A stretch of DNA of 64,000 nt from an uncultured Acidimicrobiia bacterium (GTDB lineage: Bacteria; Acidobacteriota; Terriglobia; Versatilivoradales; Versatilivoraceae): assembly GCA_963786955.1 (NCBI GenBank), contig CAWBAT010000004.1, positions 840,678 to 904,677 of the forward strand. The letters are read 5' to 3'. The translations under genes and the position numbers were made by a program. Under the pieces are notes generated by a model. The model ran no database searches. It saw only the letters and a program-made list of their open reading frames with translations, and was not told the origin of the DNA. Shown here in pieces: positions 2,010 through 30,853 of this stretch (positions are counted from its first letter, which is position 1; every line of letters begins with the position of its first letter).

Positions 2010-4358
2010 TCAATTGTTCATCTTCTGCAAGGCTCCTGCCGCGGCAACAATTTGCCCAAAGGCAATCCCACCATCATTGGGAGGAACTCGCTGATGCCAG
2101 TATGGGCGAAAACCTTCCGAACGCAGCCGCTCAATCGTCCGTTCGCTCAAATACTTGTTCTGGAAGCAGCCTCCACTCAGCACGACCCGTTCCTGTGAAA
2201 TGCGCCTCGCGATGGAGATAATGATCTCAACCAAGGCATTGTGAAAGGCCGCCGACAAACTTCCGATCGACTTCCCTGTCTTCACACCTTTAAGAATAGC
2301 GAGGACAAGTGGCTCCCAGTCTATCACAATCAACCCATTCCGGGTTACCGATGCCCGGTCCATGATTTCATGAACTGCCGGGAGTTCCGCAGTGGTCAGC
2401 CGGTAAGGGAGAGGGGACTCGTCGGCAGCCGTTTCGGCCAAGGCGAATTCCATCTCCATCGCAGCCTGGCCTTCAAAGGTGATCGACTGGCGCAAGTCCA
2501 TTAATGATGCCACCGCATCGAATAATCGTCCTACACTGGAAGTCCAGGGGGAGTGGATGCCGTCCGCGAGCATCTGACGCAAGACATTATTGCTGGCTTT
2601 TGGTAAACTGCCTGACAGGAGCCAGTTCCTGCAAGTCGGAAAGGTTTCTCTCCGTAAATCTCAAAAAGGACACCCAGGGCGGTTCGCCTGCGGCTCTTTG
2701 ACGGCGCGTTCCCCACCGGGCAGACGGAACTTTCGAAAGCTAGCAACCCGCCGAAACCCGCACTGATCTGCCAAAAGAAATTCTCCACCCCAAACAGTCC
2801 CATCCAGTCCATACCCTGTGCCGTCCCAGGAGACTCCGAGCACTGCCCCTTCCAATCCATTCTCAGCCAGGCAGGAAACCACATGAGCGTAGTGGTGTTG
2901 CACGGAAACGACTTTCTTGCCGGATGCCATGGCAAATCGGGTAGAGACGTAATCGGGATGAGAATCTGCCACAATCACTTCGGGATCCGAGCGGTAGAGC
3001 TGCTTGAAAACTGTTGATGACGTTGTGAAAGGCATTCACGGCTTCTTTGTTCTCCAGGTCCCCAATATGCTGGCTGATGAAGACGTTCTCACGCACGGTC
3101 ATGGCGACGGTGTTCTTTAAGTGCCCACCCACCGCCAGCATCTTGGGTACTGGTTTCGAGAGTCGCAAGGGCAGCGGAGCATAGCCCCGGGCACGCCGCA
3201 ATATCAGCTCGCGACCCATCATCACTCGAGCGATGGAATCGTCGACGTGGCGTACAATCGGCCGGTTATGGACCAGGAAGAAGTCAGCGATAGCTTCCAA
3301 CCGTTTGAGTGCTTCCTGTTCATCAATGCAGATCGGCTCATCCGAGAGATTGCCGCTTGTCGCCACAACCGGAACCTTAAGCTCCCGTGTTAACAGGTGA
3401 TGCAACGGAGTGTAAGGGAGCATGATTCCAAGATACGGATTGCGCGGAGCCACGGAAGGAGAAAATTCACCCGCGGATTCTGTTCCTGGATTTTATTTTG
3501 TCGAGCAGAACAATAGGGGATTCGGGTGAGAGGAGCAATCGTTCTTCCAGCGCCGAAACATGACAAAAGTTTTTTACGGCATCGAGCGATGAACACAAGA
3601 GCGCAAACGGTTTCTCTTCACGGTGCTTGCGGGCTCGCAGGCGGCTCACCGCCTCGTCGTTCGTCGCATCGACAATCAATTGAAACCCGCCAAGCCCCTT
3701 CAGGCCGAGGATTTTTCCTTTACGAACAACCGCACAGGCATCCAGCAAAGCCTGATGATGTAACCCTAAGACCTTCCCCTTGGGGTCCCACAGCTTGAGG
3801 TGAGGACCACATTCAGGACAGGCTGTAGGCTGCGCATGGAACCGGCGGTCAAGCGGGTCCTCATATTCTTTGCGGCATTGCGGGCACATTGCGAAGGCTT
3901 TCATCGAGGTATGGATACGATCGTAAGGGAGAGCATTGATGATCGAAAAACGAGGGCCACAGTTTGTGCAGTTGGTAAAAGGGTAGAGGTAGCGGCGATC
4001 GTTGGGATCGAATACGTCACGCAAACAATCCTGGCAAGTCGCGATGTCAGGCAAAACCAGAGTCAGGTTTTCTCCCTGATGGTCGCTGTGACGAATCTCA
4101 AAAACTCCGGAAGAAAAGAGGGTCCAGGCGGGTCGATTCAAGACTCTGGATCGAAGCAGCGCGAGGTTTTTCTTGCTCCAGGCGGAGGAGGAAAGTGTCT
4201 AGGACCCCGCCTCGCCTTCAACCTCGATGAATACCCCTTGTGGAGAGTTGAGCACCCAGCCACAAAGATTCATCTCGTGTGGCGAGACGATACACAAAGG
4301 GCCGAAATCCTACCCCTTGAACGGCCCCCCGGATGACAATATGAGCCCGTTCGATCAC
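2010..4358 (-). CDS. hypF: Carbamoyltransferase HypF (split by several frameshifts, probably sequencing indels)
   Basis: GTG start overlaps the hypB stop; acylphosphatase motif GAVQGVGFRPFVYRLA; Zn fingers CQDC/CTNC/CPQC/CPEC; ATSGN, SQHIGDL, QHHYAH, WDGTGYG, SSVGRLFD and PPNDGGIAFGQ appear in successive frames. Confidence 0.95.
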
Positions 4359-5008
4359 GACGATGCGGATTGTTCCTTGAGCCAATGGCACCATTCAAGA
4401 ATACCCGCACCGGTTGTGCAGGAAGTCTCGAATACTCTCAAGGAAGGATTAATATTGAGGGCATTCTGCTTCAAGGCTTCCAGGTTGCAGTTCACATAGG
4501 GAAGTAGATCGATTTTATTGATGATCAAAATGGAAGCATGGCGAAACATTCCCGGATATTTAAGGGGTTTGTCATCCCCCTCCGTCGTACTGACCACAAC
4601 TACTTTGAGCGCTTCGCCCAGATCATAGTTCGCTGGACAAACCAGATTCCCGACATTTTCAATGACCAGGAGATCCAGTTGATGCAGGTCCATCTGGGCC
4701 ATGGCGTCCTGGACCAACCGCGCTTCCAAGTGGCACCCCCCGTTCGTCACGATCTGGATCACGGGCACCTGGTAACGGGCCACACGTTGAGCATCAAAAT
4801 CCGTTTGCACATCCCCTTCGATGACGCCGATTCGGAGACGACCCCGCAGAATACCCAGGGTTTGCTCCAGTATGCTTGTTTTTCCAGAGCCCGGTGAACT
4901 GACCAAGTTGATCGAAAACACGCTATGCTGTTTCAATGCCGAGCGATTCAGTTGCGCGATCTCGTCATTTTTCTCCAGGACTTTTCGTTCGATGGTGATG
5001 ATGTTCAT
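4355..5008 (-). CDS. hypB: Hydrogenase nickel incorporation GTPase HypB
   Basis: SSPGSGKT P-loop, GGCHL, ENVGNLVCP, EGDDKPLKYP, NKIDL. Confidence 0.97.
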   Translation of the reverse strand: MNIITIERKVLEKNDEIAQLNRSALKQHSVFSINLVSSPGSGKTSILEQTLGILRGRLRIGVIEGDVQTDFDAQRVARYQVPVIQIVTNGGCHLEARLVQDAMAQMDLHQLDLLVIENVGNLVCPANYDLGEALKVVVVSTTEGDDKPLKYPGMFRHASILIINKIDLLPYVNCNLEALKQNALNINPSLRVFETSCTTGAGILEWCHWLKEQSASS

Positions 5009-5368
5009 TGAGTCTCCGACCCATTCTCAGCCATTTCGATCTCAACTACCTGGAGTTCCGTGCCAGAGATGAGCTTAATATCGTGGCTCCCGCACTCCGG
5101 GCAGAGGAAAAGGGGACCTTTAATCTTGGAGGTTTCCCCACAATCCGCACAATGCAACTGCGTCTCAACTCGTTCGATATTGAGTCTTAGCTTGTCTCAG
5201 AGACGTATCGCTGGTGATGGCGGAAAAACAAAAATCGAGCGACTCCGGCACAACTCCCGACAACCCGCCTAATCGAACCTTTATGGACTGAACTTCGGCG
5301 GAGCAGGTCTCCGGAATAGATTCACGGACAATATCCAGAATGCTTTGAGCAATGGATAACTCGTGCAT
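5005..5368 (-). CDS. hypA: Hydrogenase nickel chaperone HypA (one frameshift near 5180)
   Basis: MHELSIA N-terminus; after the frameshift CADC...CPEC and GTELQVVEIE; the stop overlaps the hypB ATG (ATGA). Confidence 0.93.
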
Positions 5369-5391
5369 GATCAGGCGGCCATTCCGTTCAT

Positions 5392-28772: not shown

Positions 28773-28790
28773 ATTCAATCAGAGGAAGCT

Positions 28791-29570
28791 ATGCCTCAAA
28801 AACCTAAACCGAAACTGGCTGTTTGGAAATTTGCCTCTTGCGATGGATGTCAGCTGAGTCTCTTGGATTGTGAAGATGATCTTTTGCTGATTGCCAACCA
28901 CATCGAAATCGCCAATTTTCCGGAAGCGTCCAGTGCTGTGGTAAAAGGCCCGTATGACGTATCGTTAGTGGAGGGTTCCATTACAACAGCTCATGATGCG
29001 GAGCGCATTCATCAAGTCCGTCGGGCTTCGAAGTTCCTGATCACCATCGGAGCTTGTGCCACAGCAGGAGGGATCCAAGCGCTCAGGAACTTCAAAGATG
29101 TCAAAGAATTTATTTCCATCGTCTATGCGGTCCCTGGCTATATCGAGACTTTGAATAAGTCCACCCCGATCGCCGACCATGTCCCGGTTGATTTCGAATT
29201 ACGGGGTTGTCCCATTAACAAAACCCAACTGGTTGAAGTGATCAGTGCGTTTCTCAATGGACGAAAGCCCAATATTCCTCATTACAGCGTTTGCATGGAA
29301 TGCAAACGCAAAGGGACTCCCTGTGTCATGGTGACACAAGGGATCCCTTGTCTCGGTCCGGTGACACATGCCGGTTGCAATGCCCTTTGTCCCAGCTACT
29401 CACGGGGTTGTTATGCGTGTTATGGGCCTAAGGAAACACCGAACCCATCTTCCCTCAGCTCCTGGTGGATGGACTCTGGGATTAAAGAGGAGAAGCTCGT
29501 CCAGATGTTCCGAGGATTCAACGCCTATGCCGAACCATTCCGTCGGGAGAGCGAAGCCCATGAAAAGTAG
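28791..29570 (+). CDS. hydD: Group 3b hydrogenase delta (small) subunit
   Basis: [40 protein letters not shown]; no Tat signal. Confidence 0.92.
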
Positions 29571-30853
29571 AACGATTAAAGTCGACATCCTGGCCCGCGT
29601 GGAAGGCGAGGGTGCTTTGTATGTCAAAGTCAAAGACTCCAAAGTAGCCGACGTGAAACTCAGAATCTATGAGCCTCCTCGCTTCTTTGAGGCCTTTATG
29701 CGAGGACGAGACTATACCGAGGCCCCGGATATCACGGCCCGGATCTGCGGCATTTGCCCCGTGGCGTACCAAATGAGTTCCGTGCATGCTATGGAGAATA
29801 TTGCCGGCGTTCACGTCGAGGGTCCCATCCGGGAACTCCGCCGTTTGCTCTATTGCGGAGAGTGGATCGAAAGCCATGTCCTCCATATCGCGATGCTCCA
29901 CGCTCCTGACTTCCTCGGTTACCCAGACGCTTTGCAAATGGCCAAGGATCACCCGGGTATTGTCCAGTCAGCCCTGCAACTAAAAAAAATTGGCAATGAG
30001 ATCATGGCCTTGATTGGGGGCCGCGAAATTCATCCAATTAACGTTCGGGTGGGAGGATTTTATCGAGTTCCCGATCGCCAGGAATTGTTGCCTCTCGTGG
30101 AAAAACTTAAATGGGCGCGGGACACCGCTCAGGAATTGGTGCGCTGGACAGCCGGTCTGTCATTCCCGGATTTTGAAAGAGATTACGAATTCGTGGCCTT
30201 GAGCCATCCCAGTGAATACCCATTTAACGAAGGTCGGCTCGTTTCCAATAAAGGGCTTGATATCCCGATTTCTGAATATGACAACGAGTTCAGTGAAGAA
30301 CACTTGGCCCATTCCAATGCCTTGCACTCTACCCTCAAGAAACGGGGCGCCTACGTCGTCGGGCCCTTGGCAAGATTTAATCTCAACTACTCCAAGCTTT
30401 CTCCCCTCGCCCAAGAAGCAGCCCAGTCGGTTGGTTTGTCGGCTGATTGCCGCAATCCGTTCCGTAGCATCATCATTCGAGCTGTTGAAACCCTTTATGC
30501 TTGTGACGAAGCTCTTAGAATCATCGAGAATTATAAAAAGCCAGATAAGCCGGCCTATGAGGTTCCTCCAAAAGCCGGCGTGGGTTACGGATGCACGGAA
30601 GCACCCAGGGGAATTCTTTTCAATCGCTACCGAATCGGATGAGGCCGGCAAGATCCTCGATGCAAAGATCGTCCCTCCAACTTCGCAAAATCAGCGCTCC
30701 ATTGAAGAGGACCTGTGGAATTTCATTCCTTCACGGCTTAATTTGTCTGACGAGAAACTGACATTACAGTGTGAACAGGCCATCCGAAATTATGACCCGT
30801 GTATTTCCTGTGCCACTCATTTTCTAAAGTTGAAAATTGAGCGCGAATCATAG
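29560..30853 (+). CDS. hydA: Group 3b [NiFe] hydrogenase alpha (large) subunit; frameshift near 30635
   Basis: ARVEGEG; L1 [22 protein letters not shown]2 [10 protein letters not shown] plus extension. Confidence 0.95.

Follow-up and report, generated by a model that had tools for sequence, protein, structure and literature searches.

Acidobacteriota that carry a clade II nosZ without nir genes, together with one isolate's nitrous oxide (N2O) reduction, have already been published, as set out in the accessible part of PMC13122619, which counts 491 nosZ-bearing genomes among 10,909 Acidobacteriota; the word 'hydrogen' is absent from the main text of that paper. N2O growth dependent on H2 or formate has likewise been published, and the accessible part of PMC11096178 gives nosB as a marker of clade II. 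For anammox bacteria, the available part of PMC12954380 presents two Kuenenia complexes bearing a putative NAD(P) oxidoreductase, whose Rieske proteins are Kuste4569 and Kustd1480 (solved structures 9rk4 and 9rk3), names 9bp5 as the closest structural homologue of the reductase subunit, and proposes that NAD(P)+ reduction is driven by quinol bifurcation. Here we analyse a stretch of 64,000 nucleotides from an uncultured sediment bacterium of the Acidobacteriota (contig CAWBAT010000004.1, positions 840,678 to 904,677; hereafter the window), in which a nos cassette opening with a flavoprotein-Rieske-cytochrome b module lies between two [NiFe] hydrogenase gene sets.

By its gene content, the organism has the parts for N2O reduction with H2, all of them of known types, H2-driven N2O respiration being already known in other phyla. 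The locus is probably a chromosomal respiratory neighbourhood of about 36 kb, composed of three separable modules: a nos cassette with its own quinol-oxidising module, a group 1 hydrogenase with its own activator and predicted promoter, and a cytosolic group 3b hydrogenase divergent from nos (Table 1). The best explanation, in which we place moderate confidence, is H2-coupled N2O respiration through these three modules, with a lineage-specific adjacency and with frame breaks that stem from assembly errors. Periplasmic H2 would reduce menaquinone through the group 1 enzyme, and the nos-dedicated Rieske/cytochrome b complex would oxidise the quinol, passing electrons to the pentahaem cytochrome and on to NosZ; the organism would thus respire N2O using H2 among other donors. 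The flavoprotein would tie the low-potential branch of the complex to NAD(P)+/NAD(P)H, and the 3b enzyme would equilibrate NAD(P)H with H2. The route from H2 through quinol and the Rieske/cytochrome b complex to NosZ is plausible.

Gene identities were derived from the listing of open reading frames (ORFs) and from Pfam and NCBIfam profile scans of the window ORFs. The window's genome (G000) comprises 5.65 Mb in 9 contigs and is 93.3% complete. It was compared with 58 nosZ loci and 40 related genomes, including 24 of the same family and two congeners, G001 (95% complete; nos locus L046) and G002 (97% complete; nos locus L004). The closest nosZ loci stem from metagenome-assembled genomes of Acidobacteriota/Terriglobia; the L004 record is labelled Acidimicrobiia, yet its genome is listed in the window's genus, whose other relatives are Terriglobia/Acidobacteriota, and the label is probably wrong. 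An earlier note on this DNA had drawn a 29-kb H2/N2O island with a 3b operon divergent from nos, and with group 1 and hyp genes downstream on the nos strand. The profile scans confirm this layout, the divergent spacer being of 687 bp (25523-26209) and not 690. The genes do lie at 2010-30853, but the cluster extends past the window, with hypC, hypD and hypE 3.1-5.5 kb to the left of its first base, and the earlier gene map, correct in its layout, had missed at least 13 frame breaks.

The nos cassette occupies about 13 kb of the minus strand and runs from the flavoprotein through Rieske, cytochrome b, pentahaem cytochrome c, nosZ, nosB-like and nosDFLY genes to an FGE-like gene. The flavoprotein-to-FGE stretch is one unit: it shows 89% DNA identity to L004 over 12,989 bases, and the similarity stops at both its ends. 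The single nosZ copy of the genome is of clade II: its first frame (535 aa) reaches 727.8 bits with the Sec-type model TIGR04246 (cut-off 625), against 366.6 bits with the Tat-type model TIGR04244, and the N-terminus, MRQKRIQWNWLWVGGGALLFLAFTLMNCG, judged by eye, is hydrophobic, of Sec type and devoid of a twin-arginine signal. The CuA motif C-x3-C-x3-H-x2-M (CTNFCSALHQEM) lies in the second frame (18501-18818), accessible to translation only provided that the additional base at 18811 is erroneous. In all 51 related loci with at least 1.5 kb of downstream flank, nosZ is followed by a nosB-like ORF, a candidate by position only. Of 37 related nosZ loci whose downstream flank measures 7.5 kb or more, 24, from several phyla, have the FGE gene as the last of the cassette. 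Formylglycine-generating enzymes are copper enzymes, and the FGE-sulfatase-domain protein may play a role in NosZ maturation. An N-terminal membrane segment was also observed in this protein.

The group 1 hydrogenase, Tat-exported and cytochrome b-linked as judged from its genes, should reduce quinone. Its small subunit carries an SRRDFLQ Tat motif and a C-terminal hydrophobic membrane anchor, and its ECTCC and SNGC align with the ECTCC and SWGC of Hyd-5 and HoxK, thus including both extra proximal-cluster cysteines, which we take to be diagnostic of a six-cysteine proximal cluster. The large subunit ends in DPCLACAVH followed by a 15-aa tail. Assignment to subgroup 1d, as advanced earlier, is plausible: the six-cysteine motif, Tat signal, anchor and HyaC-type cytochrome b speak for it, whereas the solved relative nearest to the large subunit is the A. 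vinosum enzyme (3myr_B, 834 bits), ahead of Hyd-5 (4c3o_A, 772), Hyd-1 (712) and the R. eutropha MBH (677), and the Allochromatium vinosum enzyme is filed in a subgroup other than 1d. The 3b assignment is supported: sulfhydrogenase subunit models are the best match for all four of hydB, hydG, hydD and hydA, and the top four solved relatives of hydA are 3b-type alpha subunits at 183-177 bits (5yxy_A; P. furiosus sulfhydrogenase 1 alpha), followed by Mvh (145) and the NAD-reducing type (103). The C-terminal DPCISCATH of hydA was found in the second frame. Judged by its sequence, this enzyme may either consume or evolve H2.

As a single H2/N2O island, the locus did not withstand comparison with its relatives. 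A 3b operon is found within 10 kb upstream of the nos cassette in one of 33 related loci, group 1 genes within 10 kb downstream in none of the 33, and the cis-elements of the modules are separate. G001 keeps 3b, nos, hypA, hypB and hypF in the window's order, with 3b divergent at the same spacing; 208 bp replace there the 7.3 kb (5405-12741) which in the window hold the group 1 genes, the activator and the FMN reductase. G002 has the nos cassette and neither hydrogenase. Next to its cassette stand ScdA/NnrS genes and the gene of a Crp-family regulator, and a transposase gene is found some 8 kb off. With the group 1 query no match was obtained in the 24 same-family genomes. The best match, at 84% identity, comes from G033, a nosZ-free genome of another family. 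Its gene order follows that of the window for activator, orf99, both group 1 subunits, cytochrome b, HyaD and hypABF, and the contig also carries, at a distance of 20 kb, a 3b operon that includes the same cNMP-binding gene. The hydrogenase neighbourhood thus occurs without nos, and the nos cassette without hydrogenases; the two are joined only in this genus. Three known modules with separate regulation stand side by side in the 'island'; their juxtaposition is specific to the lineage and does not amount to a conserved operon set, and the adjacency should not be taken for a conserved H2/N2O system. In Pfam scans of the window no integrase was seen at the module borders, the G002 transposase being the sole mobile-element gene met, and the window holds no tRNA genes. 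In G002 the ScdA-like di-iron protein and the NnrS-DUF1858 protein form a pair directly upstream of nos (L084:8651-12019), which in G000 is found on another contig (L068, contig 7).

A survey of 301 Acidobacteriota genomes, each at least 90% complete, gave nosZ for 29 of them, 3b HydD for 17 and the group 1 large subunit for 69; five genomes, from five families, have all three. With the window's genome left out and kinship ignored, the odds ratio of nosZ with 3b is 3.6 (Fisher p 0.05) and that with group 1 is 2.0 (p 0.07), a weak hint of association. Contigs of a sediment RNA library match nos and 3b genes at 90% identity or more, which is not proof of transcription.

The cis-elements of the modules differ. 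A GTGA-N6-TCAC palindrome, the only match in the window and a candidate Crp/Fnr-family site, lies 116-129 nt upstream of the flavoprotein start. Matching boxes stand at -129, -126, -112 and -107 in L004, L046, L053 and L052, and 5 of 8 Acidobacteriota-type cassettes, the window counted, carry one; in other phyla the box is not at that place. A search for an FNR-type TTGA-N6-TCAA box gave nothing in the spacer and 3 matches in the entire window, where 1.9 were expected. A Crp-family regulator gene was observed 3 kb upstream of the nos cassette in G002. For the group 1 operon, a sigma-54-type element, TGGCA-N6-TTGCT (9856-9870), with two upstream CGGAA/TTCCG-type palindromes, lies 19 nt upstream of orf99, and the same layout recurs upstream of the G033 orthologue (L082, upstream of 12661); this region would act as a sigma-54-type promoter. 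The pattern is not enriched in the whole window (7 matches against 5 expected), and the weight of 9856-9870 comes from position and conservation only. The activator encoded upstream of it has no receiver or sensor domain. Scans for consensus promoters and terminators gave no more sites than shuffled sequence, and the ends of the operons are not defined by them.

The earlier statement that no nar, nir or nor genes occur in the window holds for the 70 ORFs scanned, and the suggestion of a possibly non-denitrifying N2O sink is supported by six-frame profile searches of the whole genome. These returned only a YNCE-type propeller for nirS (PF02239), nothing above cut-off for nirK (TIGR02376), no narG (best 37 bits), no nrfA, and nothing above cut-off for napA, the best match, of 109 bits, being a molybdoenzyme with an in-frame TGA. 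No nitric oxide reductase (NOR) was found with the COX1 model PF00115, whose matches are two A-type haem-copper oxidases and the NnrS-DUF1858 protein. Within the limits of genome completeness, these searches support the host as a non-denitrifying N2O reducer, very probably able to reduce N2O without producing it.

The element of the locus most worth pursuing is the flavoprotein-bearing Rieske/cytochrome b module. The flavoprotein gene is the first of the nos operon, overlaps the Rieske gene by 26 nt and, among the 35 related loci whose upstream flank is 5.4 kb or longer, precedes Rieske, cytochrome b and cytochrome c genes in 33. Such cassettes occur in Acidobacteriota, Ignavibacteria, Bacteroidota and others, the cultured genera named including Ignavibacterium and Melioribacter. 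The genes of a Rieske protein, a b6-like cytochrome b that includes a subunit-IV-like part, a multihaem cytochrome c and an iron-sulfur flavoprotein stand together, the gene set of the anammox type. Among solved structures, the Rieske protein is most similar to 9rk4 (83.8 bits) and 9rk3 (79.1 bits), a third one reaching 51.8; the best solved relatives of the cytochrome b are cytochromes b6, and that of the flavoprotein is the 9bov/9bp5 chain (263.9 bits). In the ESM Atlas the flavoprotein matched nothing more specific than generic 'FAD-dependent oxidoreductase' clusters. The N-terminus of the cytochrome b and its 65-residue cytoplasmic linker are highly conserved, and a complex prediction of cytochrome b residues 1-345 with the flavoprotein scored 0.54, whereas the highest of 3 controls stood at 0.01. 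Of 157 solved complexes 116 attained the mark, as did 2 of 215 mismatched pairs, but just 18 of the 157, together with both mismatches that passed, did so with a score of 0.60 or less; the prediction, made with custom-built alignments, with runs agreeing in at least 3% of contacts and a partner pLDDT of at least 74, rates as weak support. The probable place of the flavoprotein is at the cytoplasmic face of the Rieske/cytochrome b complex.

Alignment of intact ORFs of relatives to the window revealed no fewer than 13 single-base frame breaks between 2010 and 30853. Three of them fall in hypF and two in nosY; hypA, hydrogenase cytochrome b, small subunit, sigma-54 activator, nosZ, hydB, hydG and hydA have one each. 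All 13 are in the +1 direction, no larger deletions accompany them, and protein identity to relatives is high on either side of each break; the in-frame stop of hypF (2661-2663) falls within a stretch that appears frame-shifted. DNA alignment with the closest relative resolves the nosY and nosZ breaks into single bases inserted in the window, outside homopolymers; the nosY breaks were located against L004 and L046. Independent contigs from three public sediment DNA runs and one RNA run were aligned to 12001-32000, RNA contigs giving no cover over 24007-26674. Five of the seven breaks in this interval, including in the count one in a regulator gene near 31900-32030, had contig cover, those at 30637 and in the regulator having none. 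At all five sites (14116, 14394, 18810, 26629, 28214) every covering contig is one base shorter, the extra base being missing in 3 of 3 covering DNA runs at nosZ and in 2 of 2 runs at both hydB and hydG. Because the independent contigs lack the extra base at all five covered sites, the breaks are most likely insertion errors in the assembly consensus and not decay. A home-made coding-potential detector, which caught 6 of the 13 known breaks, produced 617 candidates genome-wide, 395 of the +1 type and 222 of other type. Their spread is patchy, 154 of 543 30-kb windows having none and 82 having at least five. The island's +1-type candidates, 5 per 30 kb, are equalled or exceeded in 82 of the 543 windows. 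Unless such +1 insertion errors are recognised, annotation of this genome will include many false pseudogenes. ORF-length statistics per 30-kb window were tried as an island marker and discarded, the island lying at the 17th percentile and not being separable from the genome. Three paralogous regulators with a Trans_reg_C DNA-binding domain and TPR repeats were observed at 31309-33338, 37359-39383 and 42912-44915, the first copy being the one split by the regulator break mentioned above.

Were the breaks real mutations instead, nosZ, nosY, both hydrogenases and hypF would be pseudogenes of a decaying island. Their crowding, at least 13 in 29 kb as against few visible in 34-64 kb of the window and in a 19-kb group 3c hydrogenase region, agrees with such a decay; the breaks in 2010-12000 and at 30637 lie outside the independent-read cover, and the covering contigs are relatives at 90-99% identity, maybe other strains. 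Decay is nevertheless very improbable in view of the uniform single-base +1 type of the breaks, the conservation around them, the base missing from every contig at the five covered sites, the equal or higher +1-type density in 82 of 543 genome windows, and comparable single nosZ breaks at other positions in L004 and L002. A more serious alternative grants intact genes and denies their adjacency a functional meaning: the group 1 enzyme would feed aerobic H2 respiration, 3b would be a fermentative or redox valve evolving H2, NosZ would be fed mainly by organic donors, and nos would have landed or been rearranged into an older hydrogenase neighbourhood. Much of what is reported above weighs on this side and against a functional link: the counts of 1 and 0 in 33 related loci, the colinear hydrogenase neighbourhood of nosZ-free G033, the lack of group 1 in G001 and of both hydrogenases in G002, where nos stands elsewhere beside the Crp-family regulator, the ScdA/NnrS genes and, farther off, the transposase, the two A-type oxidases of the genome, and the separate cis-elements, no motif shared by the nos and group 1 promoter regions having been found. 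In the four other carriers of all three genes the modules are spread over different contigs. Group 1 enzymes with six cysteines are those that serve aerobic H2 oxidation. With a common quinone pool, close linkage of the genes contributes little that co-occurrence does not, and for this organism the H2/N2O coupling is predicted from genes. Set against these points, 3b and nos diverge at an unchanged spacing in two of the three members of the genus, nosZ co-occurs weakly but positively with both hydrogenase types across the phylum, and H2-derived quinol, whatever the main role of the enzyme, would be available to the nos complex whenever both are expressed. We hold a meaningless adjacency to be possible, if somewhat unlikely, and retain H2-coupled N2O respiration as the preferred reading.

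How the flavoprotein enters this respiration is a separate matter. In the mechanism of the earlier note, the Rieske complex takes both NAD(P)H, made by 3b from H2, and quinol, made by group 1 from H2, for N2O reduction. An NAD(P)-type iron-sulfur flavoprotein placed first in the operon and overlapping the Rieske gene, a 3b operon as divergent neighbour both here and in L046, and the weak predicted contact of cytochrome b with the flavoprotein all fit such a scheme. It is opposed by the 32 of 33 flavoprotein-bearing loci that have no neighbouring 3b operon, and by the 24 of 29 nosZ-positive Acidobacteriota genomes without a 3b match to this query; moreover, the only proposal for homologous complexes in the accessible part of PMC12954380 runs the opposite way, from quinol bifurcation to NAD(P)+ reduction, for which N2O as acceptor would give ample driving force. 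NAD(P)H as a second substrate is accordingly rated quite improbable. The analogy suggests that NAD(P)H may here be a product, though the sequence is compatible with either direction. A bolder proposal, still rather unlikely in our estimate, is that the nos-linked module and the NAD(P)-linked Rieske/cytochrome b complexes of anammox bacteria may be true counterparts, the N2O potential driving quinol bifurcation to NAD(P)H without reverse electron flow and 3b coupling that pool to H2 in this genus. The prediction of the cytochrome b-flavoprotein pair gives weak support to a flavoprotein bound to the membrane complex. No paper linking nos-cluster Rieske/cytochrome b modules with anammox complexes was found in a literature search outside of which key subscription literature lay.

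Table 1. Features of the H2/N2O locus, in window coordinates, with the profile matches and other observations by which they were identified.
Feature	Position	Strand	Evidence and remarks
hypF carbamoyltransferase	2010..4358	-	zf-HYPF, Sua5_yciO_yrdC, HypF_C, HypF_C_2 across four ORFs; three frame breaks
hypB nickel-insertion GTPase	4355..5008	-	TIGR00073 263.6 bits, cut-off 121.2
hypA	5008..5383	-	HypA of relatives aligns in two frames; one break near 5188
HyaD/HybD-type maturation endopeptidase	5392..5880	-	PF01750; TIGR00072 119.6 bits
b-type cytochrome subunit of group 1 hydrogenase	5974..6652	-	PF01292, TIGR02125 on first 155 aa; one break between 6197 and 6393
Group 1 [NiFe] large subunit, intact, 572 aa	6653..8371	-	PF00374 806 bits
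Group 1 small subunit	8371..9526	-	TIGR00391 357 bits; one break near 8700; intact in G033
orf99, 99 aa, ahead of small subunit	9538..9837	-	no Pfam/NCBIfam family; weak homologue at same place in G033
Predicted sigma-54-type promoter element and two palindromes	9856..9960	-	TGGCA-N6-TTGCT; CGGAA/TTCCG-type palindromes
Sigma-54 activator, AAA+ and HTH_8	10321..11347	-	PF00158 215.8 bits, PF02954; one break near 10600
NADPH-dependent FMN reductase family protein	11491..12105	-	PF03358 103.7 bits
Hydrophobic ORF, 190 aa	12219..12791	-	no family
FGE-sulfatase-domain protein, last cassette gene	12703..13908	-	PF03781 143 bits
nosY permease	13997..14826	-	PF12679; two frame breaks, at about 14117 and 14396
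nosL	14902..15348	-	PF05573
nosF ABC ATPase	15351..16262	-	PF00005 and cassette position
nosD	16259..17677	-	TIGR04247 426.7 bits, cut-off 300
nosB-like membrane protein, 230 aa, hydrophobic	17727..18419	-	directly 3' of nosZ; no Pfam/NCBIfam family
nosZ, clade II (Sec-type)	18501..20358	-	TIGR04246 727.8 bits; one frame break at about 18811, before CuA domain
Membrane-anchored c-type cytochrome, five CXXCH	20460..21785	-	Pfam cytochrome c families
Cytochrome b, 438 aa, b6-like part fused to subunit-IV-like part	21683..22999	-	PF00033, PF00032; NF040969, NF040970
Rieske 2Fe-2S protein	23047..23625	-	PF00355
GltD/NfnB-like FAD/NAD(P) flavoprotein, 640 aa	23600..25522	-	PF14691, PF07992, Fer4; N- and C-terminal 4Fe-4S domains
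GTGA-N6-TCAC palindrome, candidate Crp/Fnr-family site	25638..25651		only match in window
hydB, AsrA-like Fe-S subunit	26210..27392	+	PF17179; NF040833, NF040829; one break near 26630
cNMP-binding-domain protein, 153 aa	27468..27929	+	PF00027
hydG, FAD/NAD(P)-binding subunit	27926..28772	+	PF00175, PF10418; NF006220, NF040830; one break near 28210
hydD, small subunit, intact	28791..29570	+	PF01058; NF040831 178.9 bits
hydA, large subunit	29560..30853	+	NF040828, NF040832; one break near 30637; contiguous in G033
HycI-type maturation protease	45328..45792	+	PF01750; 14.5 kb from 3b operon

Some neighbouring genes deserve mention. The 231-aa hydrogenase cytochrome b homologue and the 348-aa activator homologue of G033 each align with the window across two frames, and the FMN reductase has no counterpart at matching places in L046 or G033. 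Between hypF and the next gene leftwards lies an ORF of no family (orf397). That next gene, between hypF/orf397 and hypC in the hyp cluster, covers window positions 1-189 and a further 2.6 kb to the left (L090:12060-14867, minus strand), and in its product, of 935 aa, a cytochrome b561/Ni_hydr_CYTB-like membrane domain is fused to numerous c-type haem motifs (Cytochrome_C7, c3, paired CXXCH). The cNMP-binding protein of the 3b operon has no DNA-binding domain and occupies the same place in L046 and G033. The HycI-type protease is a possible maturation partner of 3b.

Elsewhere in the genome, a third NiFe hydrogenase, of the Mvh/Hdr type, was found on contig 3 (141000-154500, L081). Its region contains two HdrA-like genes, HdrC- and HdrB-like genes, MvhD, small and large subunits and a HycI-type protease, with no frame breaks visible. 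A molybdopterin oxidoreductase with one in-frame TGA, on contig 5 (620917-622791), is possibly a selenocysteine formate dehydrogenase and would then be a further low-potential donor for N2O respiration. A RuBisCO-family search of the genome gave weak matches only, the best of 84 bits.

The only organisms that act as net sinks of the greenhouse gas N2O are those which reduce it and make none themselves, and a large share of them have lately been recognised to be Acidobacteriota; a lineage able to draw on H2 would consume sediment N2O whatever the carbon supply. The flavoprotein on the nos Rieske/cytochrome b module is widespread and ties N2O respiration to the open question of NAD(P)-coupled bc-type complexes. 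If the likeness to the anammox complexes were true, a mechanism still untested in anammox bacteria would become tractable in N2O respirers.

Each module can be set beside a described system. Group 1d enzymes (E. coli Hyd-1, Salmonella Hyd-5, R. eutropha MBH) are the best solved relatives of the small subunit, at 318 bits, and share with the window the six-cysteine signature, Tat signal, C-terminal anchor, HyaC-type cytochrome b and HyaD-type protease; the large subunit differs in being nearest to the Allochromatium vinosum enzyme (834 against 772 bits), and the operon in being driven by a predicted sigma-54-type promoter. The P. furiosus SHI and the T. kodakarensis cytosolic NiFe hydrogenase have the same four subunits in the order B, G, D, A and are the best solved relatives of hydA (183 and 178 bits, against 145 for Mvh). 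In contrast to these archaeal sulfhydrogenases, the window operon is bacterial, scores far under the archaeal equivalog cut-offs and has an extra cNMP-binding-domain gene between hydB and hydG.

For the nos cassette, comparison is first with Luteitalea pratensis and others (accessible part of PMC13122619), which are likewise Acidobacteriota with clade II nosZ and nosDFY and without nirK/nirS; in the Luteitalea pratensis strain SCO and azurin genes precede nosZ, whereas here the flavoprotein-Rieske-cytochrome b module does. Desulfosporosinus nitrosoreducens PR, as described in the available part of PMC11096178, is also a non-denitrifier with a Sec-type NosZ and nosB directly 3' of nosZ; its nos cluster includes Rieske, b- and c-type cytochromes as well as an iron-sulfur protein, its genome has NiFe hydrogenase and hyp clusters, and it respires N2O with H2. 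It belongs to another phylum, whereas in the window, where H2-driven N2O respiration is predicted from genes, hydrogenase operons physically bracket nos and the first gene encodes an NAD(P)-type flavoprotein of 640 aa. None of the papers found by our literature search, key subscription literature lying outside it, reports hydrogenase operons next to nos for Acidobacteriota.

The closest parallel to the flavoprotein-bearing module is that of the Kuenenia stuttgartiensis complexes (Kuste4569-4574 and Kustd1480-1485), to the extent that they are described in the accessible part of PMC12954380. The Rieske protein of the window is nearest to exactly these two, both systems have a b6-like cytochrome b with a subunit-IV-like part and a multihaem cytochrome c replacing cytochrome f, and in both the putative cytoplasmic iron-sulfur flavoprotein is related to the NfnABC entry 9bp5, the link running through 9bp5 and not through direct comparison. 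Unlike in Kuenenia, cytochrome b and the subunit-IV-like part form here one 438-aa protein, the cytochrome c has five haem motifs in place of six or eight, and an HAO-like subunit is absent; the high-potential acceptor would here be NosZ/N2O, and in Kuenenia nitrite.

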